Assembly (NCBI GenBank): GCA_964016885.1
Contig: CAXHJY010000883.1
Span: forward strand, 1-64,000
Source: Eledone cirrhosa
Taxonomy: Eukaryota
Reading direction: 5' to 3'
DNA: 64,000 nt
The notes under the pieces are model-generated. The model was not told where the DNA came from. It did no database searches and saw only the letters and a list, made by a program, of their open reading frames with translations. The translations under genes were made by a program, and so were the position numbers. Positions 1 to 34,822 of the stretch are shown in pieces (position 1 is the stretch's first letter; each line of letters begins with the position of its first letter).

Positions 1-2064
1 AGCGATATATATGTGAATATAGACATAGAATATTCGAAAATATTCTGTATGTTTATAATAAACATTTTGAAGACCTAATCGCTATAGAATAGAATACGTC
101 ACGTATTACAATTAGATTCTCGATAAAAGCAAGGGAAGTAATCTACGCGTTTCATTCTCGTAAGAAATCATCAGGACTACATATCCAGTGCTTTTATCGA
201 GAATGACACAGCTAGAGACTTATAGAATACTTAGCTGTGTACAGGAACTGGTTTGAAAGAGCGGTTGCCGGTCCGGCAGAAATTAGAAATTGGAATAAAT
301 GCTCTGAAATAGCGATATATATGTGAATATAGACATAGAATATTCGAAAATATTCTGTATGTTTATAATAAACATTTTGAAGACCTAATCGCTATAGAAT
401 AGAATACGTCACGTATTACAATTAGATTCTCGATAAAAGCAAGGGAAGTAATCTACGCGTTTCATTCTCGTAAGAAATCATCAGGACTACATATCCAGTG
501 CTTTTATCGAGAATGACACAGCTAGAGACTTATAGAATACTTAGCTGTGTACAGGAACTGGTTTGAAAGAGCGGTTGCCGGTCCGGCAGAAATTAGAAAT
601 TGGAATAAATGCTCTGAAATAGCGATATATATGTGAATATAGACATAGAATATTCGAAAATATTCTGTATGTTTAATAATAAACATTTGAAGACCTAATC
701 GCTATAGAATAGAATACGTCACGTATTACAATTAGATTCTCGATAAAAGCAAGGGAAGTAATCTACGCGTTTCATTCTCGTAAGAAATCATCAGGACTAC
801 ATATCCAGTGCTTTTATCGAGAATGACACAGCTAGAGACTTATAGAATACTTAGCTGTGTACAGGAACTGGTTTGAAAGAGCGGTTGCCGGTCCGGCAGA
901 AATTAGAAATTGGAATAAATGCTCTGAAATAGCGATATATATGTGAATATAGACATAGAATATTCGAAAATATTCTGTATGTTTATAATAAACATTTTGA
1001 AGACCTAATCGCTATAGAATAGAATACGTCACGTATTACAATTAGATTCTCGATAAAAGCAAGGGAAGTAATCTACGCGTTTCATTCTCGTAAGAAATCA
1101 TCAGGACTACATATCCAGTGCTTTTATCGAGAATGACACAGCTAGAGACTTATAGAATACTTAGCTGTGTACAGGAACTGGTTTGAAAGAGCGGTTGCCG
1201 GTCCGGCAGAAATTAGAAATTGGAATAAATGCTCTGAAATAGCGATATATATGTGAATATAGACATAGAATATTCGAAAATATTCTGTATGTTTATAATA
1301 AACATTTTGAAGACCTAATCGCTATAGAATAGAATACGTCACGTATTACAATTAGATTCTCGATAAAAGCAAGGGAAGTAATCTACGCGTTTCATTCTCG
1401 TAAGAAATCATCAGGACTACATATCCAGTGCTTTTATCGAGAATGACACAGCTAGAGACTTATAGAATACTTAGCTGTGTACAGGAACTGGTTTGAAAGA
1501 GCGGTTGCCGGTCCGGCAGAAATTAGAAATTGGAATAAATGCTCTGAAATAGCGATATATATGTGAATATAGACATAGAATATTCGAAAATATTCTGTAT
1601 GTTTATAATAAACATTTTGAAGACCTAATCGCTATAGAATAGAATACGTCACGTATTACAATTAGATTCTCGATAAAAGCAAGGGAAGTAATCTACGCGT
1701 TTCATTCTCGTAAGAAATCATCAGGACTACATATCCAGTGCTTTTTATCGAGAATGACACAGCTAGAGACTTATAGAATACTTAGCTGTGTACAGGAACT
1801 GGTTTGAAAGAGCGGTTGCCGGTCCGGCAGAAATTAATAGAATAATTCGAAATATCGTTAAATTAGTCTCGATAGTGAAGTAATCTACTCTTTTGATTCT
1901 CGATAAAAGAAGGAAGTCATCTACCGGTTTCATTCTAGTAAGAAATCATCAGGATATTCCAGGCTTTTGTCGAGAATGACACAGCTAGAGACTTATAGAA
2001 TACTTAGCTGTGTACAGGAACTGGTTTGAAAGAGCGGGTTGCCGGTCCGGCAGAAATTAGAAAT
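1..2064 (-). repeat. Tandem array of 310-bp HHR-containing unit (left arm, ribozyme on minus strand)
   Basis: AGCGATATAT recurs at 1, 311, 621, 931, 1241, 1551. Copies are near-identical, with a degraded stretch at ~1837-2064. The array runs off the window start. Confidence 0.97.
138..180 (-). ncRNA. Minimal type I hammerhead ribozyme (also at 448, 758, 1068, 1378, 1688)
   Basis: Minus strand reads GTAGTC-CTGATGA-TTTCT TACG AGAAT-GAAA-CGCG-TA-GATTAC. Stem I is GTAGTC/GATTAC, the core is intact, stem III is the palindrome ACGCGT and the site is GUA. Confidence 0.88.
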
Positions 2065-2065
2065 A

Positions 2066-4012
2066 ACGTGACGTATTCTATTCTATAGCGATTAGGTCTT
2101 CAAAATGTTTATTATAAACATACAGAATATTTTCGAATATTCTATGTCTATATTCACATATATATCGCTATTTCAGAGCATTTATTCCAATTTCTAATTT
2201 CTGCCGGACCGGCAACCGCTCTTTCAAACCAGTTCCTGTACACAGCTAAGTATTCTATAAGTCTCTAGCTGTGTCATTCTCGATAAAAGCACTGGATATG
2301 TAGTCCTGATGATTTCTTACGAGAATGAAACGCGTAGATTACTTCCCTTGCTTTTATCGAGAATCTAATTGTAATACGTGACGTATTCTATTCTATAGCG
2401 ATTAGGTCTTCAAAATGTTTATTATAAACATACAGAATATTTTCGAATATTCTATGTCTATATTCACATATATATCGCTATTTCAGAGCATTTATTCCAA
2501 TTCTAATTTCTGCCGGACCGGCAACCGCTCTTTCAAACAGTTCCTGTACACAGCTAAGTATTCTATAAGTCTCTAGCTGTGTCATTCTCGATAAAAGCAC
2601 TGGATATGTAGTCCTGATGACTTCTTACGAGAATGAAACGCGTAGATTACTTCCCTTGCTTTTATCGAGAATCTAATTGTAATACGTGACGTATTCTATT
2701 CTATAGCGATTAGGTCTTCAAAATGTTTATTATAAACATACAGAATATTTTCGAATATTCTATGTCTATATTCACATATATATCGCTATTTCAGAGCATT
2801 TATTCCAATTTCTAATTTCTGCCGGACCGGCAACCGCTCTTTCAAACCAGTTCCTGTACACAGCTAAGTATTCTATAAGTCTCTAGCTGTGTCATTCTCG
2901 ATAAAAGCACTGGATATGTAGTCCTGATGATTTCTTACGAGAATGAAACGCGTAGATTACTTCCCTTGCTTTTATCGAGAATCTAATTGTAATACGTGAC
3001 GTATTCTATTCTATAGCGATTAGGTCTTCAAAATGTTTATTATAAACATACAGAATATTTTCGAATATTCTATGTCTATATTCACATATATATCGCTATT
3101 TCAGAGCATTTATTCCAATTTCTAATTTCTGCCGGACCGGCAACCGCTCTTTCAAACCAGTTCCTGTACACAGCTAAGTATTCTATAAGTCTCTAGCTGT
3201 GTCATTCTCGATAAAAGCACTGGATATGTAGTCCTGATGATTTCTTACGAGAATGAAACGCGTAGATTACTTCCCTTGCTTTTATCGAGAATCTAATTGT
3301 AATACGTGACGTATTCTATTCTATAGCGATTAGGTCTTCAAAATGTTTATTATAAACATACAGAATATTTTCGAATATTCTATGTCTATATTCACATATA
3401 TATCGCTATTTCAGAGCATTTATTCCAATTTCTAATTTCTGCCGGACCGGCAACCGCTCTTTCAAACCAGTTCCTGTACACAGCTAAGTATTCTATAAGT
3501 CTCTAGCTGTGTCATTCTCGATAAAAGCACTGGATATGTAGTCCTGATGATTTCTTACGAGAATGAAACGCGTAGATTACTTCCCTTGCTTTTATCGAGA
3601 ATCTAATTGTAATACGTGACGTATTCTATTCTATAGCGATTAGGTCTTCAAAATGTTTATTATAAACATACAGAATATTTTCGAATATTCTATGTCTATA
3701 TTCACATATATATCGCTATTTCAGAGCATTTATTCCAATTTCTAATTTCTGCCGGACCGGCAACCGCTCTTTCAAACCAGTTCCTGTACACAGCTAAGTA
3801 TTCTATAAGTCTCTAGCTGTGTCATTCTCGATAAAAGCACTGGATATGTAGTCCTGATGATTTCTTACGAGAATGAAACGCGTAGATTACTTCCCTTGCT
3901 TTTATCGAGAATCTAATTGTAATACGTGACGTATTCTATTCTATAGCGATTAGGTCTTCAAAATGTTTATTATAAACATACAGAATATTTTCGAATATTC
4001 TATGTCTATATT

Positions 4013-4017
<5 letters not shown>
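2066..4017 (+). repeat. Tandem array of the same 310-bp unit, inverted (right arm)
   Basis: Reverse complement of the 1-310 unit, about 6.3 copies, ending at CTATATTCAC followed by (TA)n. Confidence 0.97.
2300..2342 (+). ncRNA. Minimal type I hammerhead ribozyme (also at 2608, 2918, 3228, 3538, 3848)
   Basis: GTAGTCCTGATGATTTCTTACGAGAATGAAACGCGTAGATTAC, enclosed by the 16-bp stem ATTCTCGATAAAAGCA/TGCTTTTATCGAGAAT. Confidence 0.88.
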
Positions 4018-4060
<43 letters not shown>

Positions 4061-7443: not shown

Positions 7444-8067
7444 ATATATATATATATTATATATATATATATTATATATATATTATATTGTTATACTTTG
7501 GGAGGGTCATGTTGCCAATAAGAAACACACGCACCAGTTGCTTTCACTTCAATTTATTATAATAAATTTGTAAATTTAGGAATTTATAAATTTATAAAAT
7601 TCCGGTTGGTTGGTTCCACAACCAGATGGTTGTTTATATATTGTCAAAGTTCTTTCGTCACACATTCTGTGACCACTTCAGTGACTGGGGATTCTTTTCT
7701 TTGTTTTTGTGGCTCTCCTTTGTTCTGTCCTACGCCATTTTGTTTCTGTGTGTGTGTTGTGTGCTCAGGGTAAATTAGAGAACATAGAAATAAAAATAGA
7801 ATCTACGCACAGAAAAGACGCAATGTTTAGACAAATCACAGAGGCAATAAACATAAAAGAATTACAACCAAAATTAAATAGAAAACATGAATGGAACAGC
7901 AACATCACAACTTACAATTAAGGACAAAAATGAAAACACACACGCACATAGAACAAACAATCAACCTGTAACATGTAAATAAACAAATAAATAAACGAAT
8001 ATAAACACACACAGACACCCGGATGTGGCGCATACGCAGACTGAGCACACAACACACAGAAACAAAA

Positions 8068-8663
8068 GAACTAGGAATAAGGCTAATAGAATAAACTCAT
8101 GGTATGATAGCAATAAATACCAGAGTGTAATGTTCATCGATACAACCCCTAGAGGTGAATTAGCTTACAAATTTAGAAGGGTCCTAGATAAACATAAACT
8201 CAATATTAAGATAGTAGAAAGACCAGTTACCTCCGTAAAAACACTTATTAGCAAGACATACCCTTTCCAAAGACCCCCCTGTATAGATAAGAAATGTATA
8301 ACCTGTAAAATAAGCCCCCATATTAACTGTAAAACTAGAAATGTAGTGTATAACATAAGATGTACTGAAGGACAATGTAGAGACAAAAATATAGTGTACA
8401 TAGGTGAGACAGCTCGTAGTGTAGGGGAACGGATAAATGAACACTGGCGAGACCTTCAAGATAGTAAAGAATCATCTGTACTCTACCAACATGCTAAAAT
8501 AGAACATAAGCGTAAATTAGAGAACATAGAAATAAAAATAGAATCTACACACAGAAAAGACGCAATGTTTAGACAAATCACAGAGGCAATAAACATAAAA
8601 GAATTACAACCAAAATTAAATAGAAAACATGAAGGGAACAGCAACATCACAACTTACAATTAA
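8068..8663 (+). pseudogene. PLE ORF C-terminus: Cys-rich linker and GIY-YIG endonuclease
   Basis: FIDTTPRGELA...CIDKKCITC...NCKTRNVVYNIRC...YIGETARSVGERINEH...[19 protein letters not shown] is missing. Confidence 0.9.
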
Positions 8664-13539: not shown

Positions 13540-13570
<31 letters not shown>

Positions 13571-13574
<4 letters not shown>

Positions 13575-27741: not shown

Positions 27742-28500
27742 ATTGAGAAGGCGTATGTCCTCATAGCGCCTCATATGGCGATGCTAAGCCGTGTCCTCAG
27801 GGAGGAGAAAACCGAAGGGAGGGATGAGGGGAAGGAGAGGGAAAAGGAAAAGGAAAAAGAAAAAGTAAAGGAGAGCACAAGCACGGACCTGAAAGAAAAT
27901 GATATACCCTCCGCTACAGGCAGGGAGGGCAGGCCGGGCAACCAACAAGCTAAGGGCAAAGGTGAAAAGCGAAATCACCTTCCGAAGGAGAACCAAGCGC
28001 AGAGGGACCAGTGGACAGCTGTTCAAAGAAAGAACAGAAAGCACCGAGACACTGGGAGCAAAAAACCCCAAGTAATGTGCAAGTTTTTCAAGAACGGGAC
28101 ATGCTGGCATGGAGAGACAGGGATGGGATGCAGATTCGCCCACCCTAGGTCTCAAACGAACTATGCCCATCATACTCGCGCAACATGCCCCAGTCTAAGC
28201 CGAAATAAGCCGCTCCAGAAGTATGCTGATGTCGCGCGTGCCGCACCAACAAGGAGAAGGCACGCACATGCCGACGAGATACAGATGGCAGCAGCAGATC
28301 AGAAAAATTTTTTAGTGATGGCAGAGAAGATTGTGGGACAGCTGACCTGGCTGCATCGTCTCCAGAGCCAGGGTCATCCACACCAGCACTCGAGACCACC
28401 GCAGTTAAGGGACCCAGAGTGGCCGCCGCTGACACCAGACCAGGTGTCATACCGACAGCCATTACTGGCACCCCAAAAGTCACACCAGTGCTGCTGCTGA
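27742..28500 (+). CDS. LINE ORF1 C-terminal part with CCCH zinc finger
   Basis: [23 protein letters not shown]. The ORF-track N-terminus is microsatellite. Confidence 0.75.
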
Positions 28501-31460
28501 ATGTCAGGGGCCTGGTGAAACTCAGCAACATGAGTAAAATTTCCTACCTGGGAGACTTAGCCATAAGCAATCAAGCACTATGCATGGCACTAACCGAAAC
28601 GCACCTGACAAGCAGTATAGCAGATGCAGAAATACATATACCGAAATATACTGTATTTCGTTCGGACAGGAAGGAGAGAACTCATGGTGGGGTTGCTCTG
28701 TATATCCGTGAAGATGTCACACCAATTGTACTGTTGACACATTCAAACTCAGTCTGTGACACACTGATAATACATATGAAGCAACTACAGACGGTAATAT
28801 GTGTCACATATCGGCCGCCCGATGCCCCCAGTCATGAGGGTAAATTTGAGGATAGCCTAAGTAGGATAGAAGAGGTCCTTGACAAACTGGACCAGGGTCT
28901 CAACATCCTACTGCTGGGAGACTTCAACCTACCAAAGGTCAAATGGCCTGAGGGCCACCTCCTCCCTGGAATGACGTCAATGGAACAGAGACAGACGGAA
29001 TCCCTGCTGGCCCTCACACACAGGCTGTTCATGGAGCAAGCAATACTCCTCCCAACAAGAGGCGAAAATGTCCTGGACCTCTGTTTTACAAACAACGAAG
29101 TGCTCATCCACAATGTAAAGGTGACACCAACAATTCTCTCGGATCATAACTTGGTAGAGCTAATGATATGTGGTCCAAGAGAACCAACAGAGACAAAACC
29201 ACTAAGAAGCTCCGGGACGCTATCCAGCCTTAACTTCTACGGGGCTGACTGGAAGAAGATTAAGAGTGAAATCGGGAAGCAAACATGGAGTGCAAACATC
29301 GCCACACAAGACACTAACACACAATTTCAACACTTCATGACAACGATACACACCATATGCAAAAAGTGTGTCCCGGAGAAAGAGGCAAACAGACACAAAA
29401 ATCTTATTCCCAGAGATAGGAAAATCCTTATGAGACGTAGAACTAAACTCTCAAACCAGTTGAATAGTCAACAAAACCAAAACAAGAAGGAATCCTATTT
29501 GAAACGTGCACTACTTGACACCGAGATTGCACTCAAGCTTTCACATGAGAATGAGAGGGCAAGGAAAGAGAACAGGGCCATAGAAAACATTAAAACAAAC
29601 CCTAAGGCCTTCTTTAAATTTGCAAAAGAAACTGCCTCAGTACACTGCAAGATTGGACCACTCTTCCACACGGACGGTTCATTAACCGAAAATCCCCAAG
29701 AGATATGTGAAATACTGAACGAACAGTACAAAAGTGTCTTCACATGTCCACTGAGGCACATGCAAATAACGAAGCCAGAGGAGTTCTTTGATGCCACAAC
29801 ACTACATCAAGAAATGGCAACCATCAACCACATAGACATAACGGAGGAGGATGTGGTGTACGCCATTGATGAAATTAGAACAGACTCGGCTGCTGGACCT
29901 GATGGATTCCCAGCAGTTCTCCTAAAAATATGTAAGCGGGCCTTAGCAACTCCACTGAAGATGCTCTTCAGAAGCTCCTTGGCTAGCGGTGTACTACCAA
30001 GGGAGCTGAAAGAAGGCACAATATGCCCTATCCATAAAGGAGGTAGTAGAGCGGAGGCCAAGAACTATAGGCCAGTCTCCCTGACGTCGCATATCAGTAA
30101 GATCATGGAGCGAGTCGTCAGAAAGAAACTAATCACTTTCCTCGAAGAAAATGACCGCCTGACTAGCACGCAACATGGCTTCCGCCCAGGAAGAAGCTGC
30201 CTTACACAGCTGCTACATCACTACGACTGGGTACTGAGACAACTACTAGACAGCTCACATGTAGACGTGATATATCTTGACTTTGCGAAGGCCTTTGACA
30301 AGGTCGACCACGGAATGATATGTCACAAACTACACGGACTCGGCATAACTGGAAAAGTAGGTGAGTGGCTGCATGGCTTCCTAAGGGACAGGAGCCAGGC
30401 AGTCGCAGCAAATGGGGCCCTCTCGAGGGAAACACCGATAACAAGTGGGGTGCCTCAGGGGACAGTCCTGGGACCACTACTGTTTTTGGTGGCTCTCTCG
30501 GACATGCCCTCTGTGGTGCATGCAACAACATCCCTCACTAGCTATGCTCATGACACTAAGGTAGCACAGGCAATCAAAAACCCGGCTGACGCTGCCCTCT
30601 TACAGCAGGATCTGGATGCCATATACAGATGGGCGGAAGAAAACAACATGCAGTTTAATGCTGGCAAATTCCAAGCCCTACAATACAAACCTGCAAACAC
30701 AAACACAAATATAGCGGAACACAGCTACACAGGACCAGGGGGGACCGATATCCCCGTGTCAAAATCGATACGAGACCTGGGCATAGACATGAGCGATGAT
30801 GCATCTTTTTCTTCACACATCATGAAGGTGGCGACAGCATGTAGACGATACGCTGGCTGGATCTTGAGGACTTTCCTTACAAGAGATCGAGACACCATGT
30901 TGACACTGTGGAGGACTTTTGTGCTAAGCCGCCTGGACTACTGCTCCCAGCTGTGGTCACCCCATAGTGTCAAACTAACCACGGGGCTTGAGGCAATCCA
31001 GCGAAGCTACACCAAGAGGATTGCCAAGATGAGGGAGACAAGCTACTGGGAGAGGCTGAAGGAACTGAACCTCTACTCCTTGGAGCGAAGACGGGAGAGA
31101 TACGCAGTGATCTACATGTGGAAAATCCTGGAGGGACTAGCACCAAACTTTGGCATTGGGAGCTGGACCAACCGTCGAACAGGACGTCACTGTGTGGTGC
31201 CAAAGGTCCCGTCTTCCACACCTAGAATAAGGAGCAGATATTGCAATAGCCTGGGATTCAAGGGCCCTCAACTCTTCAACAGGCTGCCGAGGCATCTGCG
31301 AGACTTGCATGGCGTGGAGGTGGATGTCTTTAAGAAACATCTCGACACCTTGTTATCCAGGATCCCGGATGAGCCCACAGCAAGACACGAGGGAAACCTA
31401 AGGGCTGCAGCAACAAACTCCCTCCTACACCAGTGGCCAACCTATACAGGCTGGAGATAA
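28419..31460 (+). CDS. LINE ORF2: APE endonuclease plus reverse transcriptase (YADD changed to YAHD)
   Basis: [99 protein letters not shown]. Confidence 0.95.
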
Positions 31461-31535
31461 AATGTGTAGCAACAAGGGCGGTGCCTCAGCATGGCCTCAG
31501 CCGGATGGCTGAAACAGGTAAAAGAGTAAAAGAGT

Positions 31536-33794
<2,259 letters not shown>

Positions 33795-33879
33795 ATCAAA
33801 AGATGGTTAAAAGAGTTCCATATATTTTATTATGCGCATTTCAAAAACAAACATATTCACCTTAAGGTTCACCTTACAT

Positions 33880-34822
33880 ATGATACACTGTACCAATAGG
33901 AAATGTATCATATGTAAGGTGAACCCCCGGATAAACTGTAAAACTAGAAACGTAGTCTATAGCATAAGATGTACAGAGGGTACTTGCAGAAACATGACAA
34001 CAACATACATAGGTGAGATAGCTCGTAGCATAGGTGAAAGGATAGACCAACACTGGGGGGAACTAAAAGGACGAAAAAACTCGTCAGTACTATACGAACA
34101 TGCTAGACAACAACATGACGGTAACATAGACAACATAGAAATTAGAATAATATCTAAACATAGGAATGACCCAGCAGATAGTCAAATCAGAGAGGCCAGT
34201 GAAATAGAAATTAGAAGACCAAAGCTAAACAGAAAGAATGAGTGGAACAACAACAACACCCAAACAAACAACACTGACCTGAGAGAAGTATTAATAAGTA
34301 AATAAAATAAAATAAAATAAGATAAATAAATACATACACAAGTACAATAACAACAAGCACATAAACACACACTAGTCACCCAGCAGACACAACACTATAT
34401 ACACTAGTCACACAGCACACATAACACTATACACACACACAAACGCATGCGCAAAGAAGACAAAATAAAATAAAATAAACAAACAAGCAAATAAATAAAT
34501 AAATATATAGACAGACTGAATAAAAAAATGGCGTAGACATACAACACAACAGGAGGAACAAAGAATATAACACCATTGACGATGTTGCAGATGTGCAACG
34601 AAAGATTTATGTAAATTATGTAAACTATATATATGTGTTTGTGTCTATATTGTATCTGTATTATTTTTGACCGTCGGTCAGTCAATGGCAACATTGAGGA
34701 CCGAGTAAGTTAGATCGCAGATATAAAAGACAGCGAGAAGCGAAAACCAACCAAACAGTGAGTGTGTTCTGTTATTAATTCTGGCAATATTACGCAAATA
34801 TGACCCTCCCCAAGTATAACAA
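33880..34822 (+). mobile_element. PLE 3' fragment (GIY-YIG to 34305, pLTR with HHR variant at ~34573-34611), relative of 8068-9132
   Basis: NCKTRNVVYSIRC...YIGEIARSIGERIDQH...RPKLNRKNEW. HHR reads TTGACGA-TGTTGCA GATG TGCAAC-GAAA-GATT-TA. Shares the end motif ATGACCCTCCC.AAGTATAACAATAT. Confidence 0.87.

Follow-up and report, generated by a model that had tools for sequence, protein, structure and literature searches.

A putative programmed -1 frameshift site at the ORF1/ORF2 overlap of a LINE and its distant relatives

The LINE copy and its ORF1/ORF2 junction

The window (the whole 64,000-nucleotide stretch of DNA analysed) is animal DNA with many (TA)n repeats. It contains a 3.8-kb LINE copy at 27742-31535 that is bounded by (TA)n tracts at both ends; no second copy is present within the 64 kb. 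The (TA)n microsatellite found on either side of the copy (27742, 31535) may represent a preferred target site. The copy has the features of an APE-type non-LTR retrotransposon: ORF2 encodes an APE-type endonuclease followed by a reverse transcriptase (RT), there is no LTR, the 3' tail is a short tandem repeat, and the 5' end is truncated. The endonuclease (EN) domain lies at 28491-29156 (+; Pfam PF03372, PF14529) and the RT domain at 30030-30683 (+; PF00078, E = 1.8e-27). A short 3' UTR (31461-31535, +) ends in a (TAAAAGAG)2 repeat at 31519-31534, followed by (TA)n. Because the RT catalytic motif reads YAHD (30543-30554, within an uninterrupted ORF), the RT of this copy is probably dead and the copy inactive.

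ORF1 is represented by a remnant at 27742-28500 (+), truncated at its 5' end at the (TA)n microsatellite; the related protein P0067 reaches further N-terminally. The remnant encodes one CCCH zinc finger (28078-28143, +; Pfam zf-CCCH, E = 0.014, under the curated cut-off), whose Cys and His residues are invariant in P0067 and P0068. Phe-Leu comes next, and the remaining tail runs in overlap with the ORF2 frame to its stop at TGA 28498-28500.

Other repeats are found elsewhere in the window. A 310-bp tandem array in an inverted arrangement (more than 99% identity) and a dispersed copy that is 97% identical are found at 1-4045 and 13540-14127. Two fragments (7995-8663 and 33811-34305, both +) resemble by eye the GIY-YIG endonuclease termini of Penelope-like elements. 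Two more (57634-58362, -; 23713-24171, +) look by eye like the C-termini of other non-LTR elements.

In the ORF1 frame, positions 28300-28317 read CAG AAA AAT TTT TTA GTG (Q K N F L V). The two overlapping slippery heptamers proposed in an earlier note, A AAU UUU (28305-28311, +) and U UUU UUA (28308-28314, +), are both present in ORF1 phase. The second, which encodes Phe-Leu, is the conserved one; A AAU UUU is seen in the window alone among nine loci and has not been kept by distant relatives. Relative to ORF1, ORF2 is read in the -1 frame, which is stop-free from 28230 to 31460, so that 28230-28500 (+) is dual-coding: frame 0 encodes the ORF1 tail, and frame -1 encodes a Ser/Thr/Pro-rich linker to the endonuclease. 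As that note had also claimed, the open -1 frame leads into ORF2 with an endonuclease motif ahead of the first ATG: LLLNVRGL begins at 28491, and the first ORF2-frame ATG past the heptamer (28530) is downstream of the motif Asn. The predicted fusion is 1,228 residues in length, counted from the ATG at 27775 in the truncated window copy. Since the stop-free overlap of the window alone is not significant (P about 0.12), the case for frameshifting rests on the family contig and on distant relatives.

The junction in family copies and distant relatives

At least half of the sampled words were present in 7 of the 19 listed read runs, under four organism labels. In run X3, from an organism other than that of the window, a 327-nt contig with a depth of 4,880 covers 28093-28419 (the remaining listed contigs of this run have depths of 18-25). 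It has no gaps and five substitutions, placed by the depth table at 28194, 28196, 28242, 28243 and 28401, all of them outside the heptamer, which is untouched; the X3 substitutions considered here are 40 of 98 entries. Runs X8, X9 and X12 gave three to four short contigs each. A copy-specific indel as the cause of the -1 register was rejected by the gap-free, high-depth X3 contig: because this family contig has the site without a gap, the register, judged from these reads, is that of the family and not damage in the window copy. A check on family copies, which the earlier note had proposed, therefore came out in favour of the signal, with heptamer and register retained in the family-majority contig and no stop created in either frame by any of the nine listed differences tested. 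Two closer ORF1 relatives retain S-F-L, followed by a nearly invariant tail.

More distant relatives were compared in an endonuclease alignment of 80 of 137 metagenome loci and 6 genome-bin loci; no EN relative was found among viral contigs. In the RT tree (FastTree, midpoint root), the window belongs to a group made up of L001-L012, L030, L032 and L081 (support 0.977). The corresponding node of the EN tree (0.996) also takes in two proteins that the RT tree places elsewhere. This CCCH group forms its own clade in the RT tree (0.977), away from stork proteins that we take to be CR1, in a midpoint-rooted FastTree analysis without named L2, Crack, Daphne or Rex references.

L010, L011, L030 and L032 are without junction coverage and L002-L004 are one family, giving 10 families for the junction count. 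ORF2 is in the -1 frame with an in-phase heptamer in 9 of these 10 (7 by the strict X XXY YYZ rule), and in the nine families the heptamer is close to the start of the ORF1/ORF2 overlap. U UUU UUA is found in six families (the window, L001, L007, L008, L009 and L012), and the variants are G UUU UUA in L005, G GAU UUU in L002-L004 and A AAA AAC in L081, the heptamers of L002 and L081 having been chosen after inspection. EN identities among the nine families are 27-48%, with one pair at 70%. The exception is L006, which reads T TTT TCA, lies on a contig without ORF1 upstream, and has its own ATGs.

TTT TTA encodes the junction Phe-Leu in 7 of 7 loci; of 22 Phe-Leu pairs at other places in these elements, none is encoded in this way. 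U UUU UUA is absent in phase from 7,598 other codons, among which any strict heptamer occurs 24 times. The joint synonymous probability across the six U UUU UUA loci is 1.5e-10; the site is conserved at synonymous positions, beyond what the protein needs. Between the heptamer and the EN Asn the -1 frame stays open over 61-159 codons, but it is closed 2-26 codons upstream of the heptamer; the +1 frame contains 3-11 stops in the overlap of each locus. When the expectation is conditioned on the ORF1-tail amino acids and the codon use of each element, 23.3 stops are expected in the -1 frame of the overlaps and none is observed (joint P about 1e-12, which, like the other joint value, assumes independence of the loci). 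Calibrated upstream, the same stop-count method gives 173 observed versus 185 expected. The retention of the heptamer at synonymous positions in distant relatives, together with a stop-free -1 frame, supports the frameshift-signal reading put forward earlier.

Heptamers were also seen in other CR1-like groups, whose ORF1 is different. A -1 overlap with A AAA AAC in phase is present in L031, L046/L051, L057/L060, L067, L068, L070/L071, L072 and L076, and L066 and L075 likewise have U UUA AAC and C CCU UUA in phase. Elsewhere in these elements (9,361 codons) A AAA AAC is found in phase only 3 times, the sites having been chosen after inspection. Still other relatives overlap in the +1 frame or, if in the -1 frame, lack a heptamer (L017, L022/L025/L026/L029, L044, L052, L054, L059, L061, L073; L019-L021, L023, L024, L028), so the frameshift signal is not universal in CR1-like LINEs. 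An N-terminal extension of ORF2 by 140-520 codons, in the same frame as the endonuclease and often with a PHD-like Cys pattern, is found in L014-L016, L018, L033, L035, L037, L038 and L042 and in the proteins P0046, P0048 and P0060.

ORF1 proteins and RNA structure at the junction

The ORF1 architecture of the clade is (PHD)-CCCHx1-3-helix. Weak Pfam PHD matches are present upstream in 7 of 8 ORF1 proteins and absent from P0067, the closest relative of the window. A profile of the fingers and tail matched 2,738 clusters at 50% identity, and Phe-Leu follows the last finger in 138 of the best 150 of these homologues. The residue preceding Phe-Leu is NNU-codable in 137 of the 138, although E/K/Q/M/W account for 28.5% of the residues in these tails. 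The codon after Phe-Leu starts with G in 123. S/D-x-x-E is a helix capping box; the protein-level Phe-Leu count is supportive, but is confounded by helix capping and by a search profile that itself contained Phe-Leu. The ORF1 alignment was too variable for a scan. AlphaFold2 (60-sequence alignment) predicts a helix that starts at the junction Phe (residues 143-178 of P0080; 36 residues, mean pLDDT 80). With the ORF1 model as query, Foldseek found nothing at E<=0.001; the best weak rows are CCCH proteins such as CPSF30.

CCCH, EN and RT are found in one frame in three database proteins, P0022, P0029 and P0035. The junction of P0035 reads DSFFR, the same residues that four loci encode across the heptamer in the -1 frame; its single frame may reflect a homopolymer error, or P0035 may come from a fused copy. 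Longer, fused forms of ORF1 were looked for among 1,444 candidates and not found, although this is weak evidence.

The HIV frameshift site has a 3' stem-loop, whereas no conserved 3' stem-loop was detected in the LINE. The stem proposed in the earlier note (28317-28357, +) stands as far as its arms are concerned, GATGGCAG (28317-28324) and CTGCATC (28351-28357), but it is weak: in 5 of 5 stretches folding did not rise above that of shuffles (z -0.15 to +1.11), and the stem is absent as a shared feature in relatives. No hairpin is shared across the nine loci, and only L007 folds well at all three lengths. Pseudoknot prediction downstream of the heptamer, another suggestion of that note, did not favour the window: in a crude scan, which does not strictly exclude structure, 95% of shuffles were beaten in two of the nine loci, the window not among them. 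There is no Rfam match at the junction, and pairing with the 3' end of the element was not found in any of the six loci tried (13-96% of shuffles were equally good). L004 has an internal duplex that outperformed 12 of 12 shuffles, though it is not a shared feature. The stem-loop or pseudoknot that characterizes the retroviral -1 class 5-9 nt downstream of the heptamer was not found. In this respect the site falls short of the classic class defined by heptamer plus structure, although it behaves like a member in all sequence tests.

Routes to ORF2

Because the heptamer sits at the ORF overlap and is kept letter for letter in very distant relatives, we consider it likely (probability approximately 0.8) that this LINE family makes its endonuclease and RT as an ORF1-ORF2 fusion by programmed -1 frameshifting at U UUU UUA (28308-28314). 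Most ribosomes would read Phe-Leu and then the C-terminal helix and Gln/Pro-rich tail up to the stop, producing ORF1p. A minority would slip back one base on tRNA-Phe/tRNA-Leu, traverse a low-complexity linker rich in Ser/Thr/Pro/Asn, and go on to translate EN and RT. The fusion would retain the zinc fingers (CCCH, with PHD in many relatives) and exchange the ORF1 helix for ORF2. Since a shared RNA stimulator was not found, the shift is predicted to be inefficient, and an inefficient shift would suit the large ORF1p excess required by LINEs.

This arrangement is like HIV-1 gag-pol in several respects: the identical heptamer is in the phase of the upstream ORF, the polymerase ORF is in -1 without its own start, and the upstream ORF runs past the site. 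Unlike HIV-1, the LINE is a non-LTR element, and the fusion would remain whole and uncleaved because no protease domain was found in it. The claim that U UUU UUA is the HIV-1 gag-pol site agrees with the accessible text of PMC5009743, which names U_UUU_UUA, as well as G_GAU_UUU and A_AAA_AAC, as natural -1 sites and in which the only non-LTR elements discussed are HeT-A and TART. Among LINEs, Dictyostelium TRE5-A and TRE3-A are stated to require a -1 frameshift in the accessible part of PMC5911963. These are L1-clade elements, of another clade and host than the window LINE, and, as compared with that review statement alone, the window clade differs in having its heptamer conserved at synonymous sites.

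The element also resembles the CR1-group LINEs, for which ORF1 types I-V have been described (Metcalfe and Casane 2014, PMC4120745), in its ORF2 with APE and RT, its short repeat tail, and the PHD-like finger that many of the clade's ORF1 proteins carry. Compared by description, the (PHD)-CCCHx1-3-helix ORF1 fits none of the CR1-group types quoted in that paper, and the accessible main text contains no reference to CCCH, frameshifting or overlap. The accessible portions of PMC1965478 and PMC5443660 hold nothing further on LINE heptamers or frameshifting. Within the open-access literature searched there is no description of a slippery heptamer conserved in LINEs. Frameshifting may already have been proposed in older work on LINEs with overlapping ORFs.

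Reinitiation is the reported route to ORF2 in SART1 and L1 (accessible texts of PMC2881922 and PMC3708506, and also of PMC3894237, where LINE ORF2 initiation is called an open question), and for rat L1 the title of a paper reports reinitiation rather than frameshifting. The window LINE is like SART1, with its UAAUG coupling, and mammalian L1 in being a bicistronic APE-type LINE RNA with low ORF2 output. Those elements make a separate ORF2p by restarting at the ORF1 stop, whereas in the window LINE the -1 overlap of the two ORFs extends over hundreds of bases, with the conserved heptamer near the start of that overlap. ORF2 could nevertheless be produced mainly by termination and reinitiation at the ORF1 stop or close to it (on CUG/GUG in the window, on UAAUG in L008), with the heptamer secondary. 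A possible site in the window is the run of near-cognate codons GTG CTG CTG CTG in the ORF2 frame (28488-28499, +), which is directly ahead of the EN Asn and whose last codon overlaps the ORF1 TGA. The ORF1 stop is 2-71 nt from the EN Asn in 9 of 9 loci, an ORF2-frame ATG precedes this Asn in five of them (it is absent in four, the window included), and the ORF1 stop reads as a SART1-like TAATG in L008, GTGA in L002 and ATAG in L081. A SART1-type AUG over the stop is absent in the window, however, and is found in one of the nine loci (L008); there is no common start codon, and neither L009 nor L001 has a near-cognate within 30 nt of the stop. Reinitiation also needs neither the 61-159 stop-free -1 codons before EN nor the synonymous TTT TTA. 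We consider it improbable as the main route, while it could be running alongside frameshifting.

Three other explanations concern the site itself. If TTTTTTAG were a 3' splice or trans-splice acceptor, a spliced mRNA would join part of ORF1 to the ORF2 frame, which would also account for the opening of the -1 frame at the heptamer. (T)nAG is present at the site in 5 of 9 loci, with TTTTTTACAG in L012, and the G-starting codons after Phe-Leu (123/138) would fit an acceptor. AG is absent after the site in L002, L005 and L081, however, and is in another phase in L012; the 20 nt upstream are not rich in pyrimidines (0.25-0.60; 0.25 in the window, which also has 4 upstream AGs); no joint lies at 28315-28316 among 15 listed of 18 joints, and family depth is flat across the site. 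A splice acceptor would accept TTC/CTA equally, although TTT TTA is found in 7 of 7 loci. Slippage of RNA polymerase on the T-run, adding one U to some transcripts, would similarly bring ORF2 into frame. It would suit the T6 run present in 6 of 9 loci and P0035, which looks like the product of one base gained in a T-run, but G GAT TTT and G TTT TTA obey the tandem-slip rule with T4-T5 runs only, and retrotransposed slipped copies would be expected whereas no insertion at the site is among the X3 differences listed. Both splicing and polymerase slippage fit less well than frameshifting; we regard the former as very unlikely and the latter as hardly credible. Lastly, selection might act only on the protein motif x-F-L at the start of the ORF1 helix, leaving the heptamer and the open frame as by-products. 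This agrees with the position of Phe-Leu at the start of the predicted 36-residue helix and with the non-significant overlap of the window on its own, but not with the fixed synonymous choice (7/7 versus 0/22) or with the absence of stops where 23 are expected given the amino acids, and it is most improbable.

Applied to the thousands of ORF1 clusters, the frameshift reading would imply a large LINE lineage that makes its RT only as an uncleaved Gag-Pol-like fusion. The slip at the first helix residue would swap the helix for EN-RT, and the shift would be set by a protein, possibly the ORF1 CCCH fingers, which would autoregulate the ORF1:ORF2 ratio. We offer this wider picture as a speculation, and a rather doubtful one.

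If frameshifting at the heptamer is the true reading, it would be of interest as a third route to ORF2, beside reinitiation in the tested cases SART1 and L1, and work on recoding would gain a useful natural example in which no structural stimulator is apparent. It would also mean that annotation commonly starts the ORF2 of this group too far downstream, at an AUG within the endonuclease, as many database entries do. RNA-binding zinc fingers are predicted at the N-terminus of the replicase in this group.
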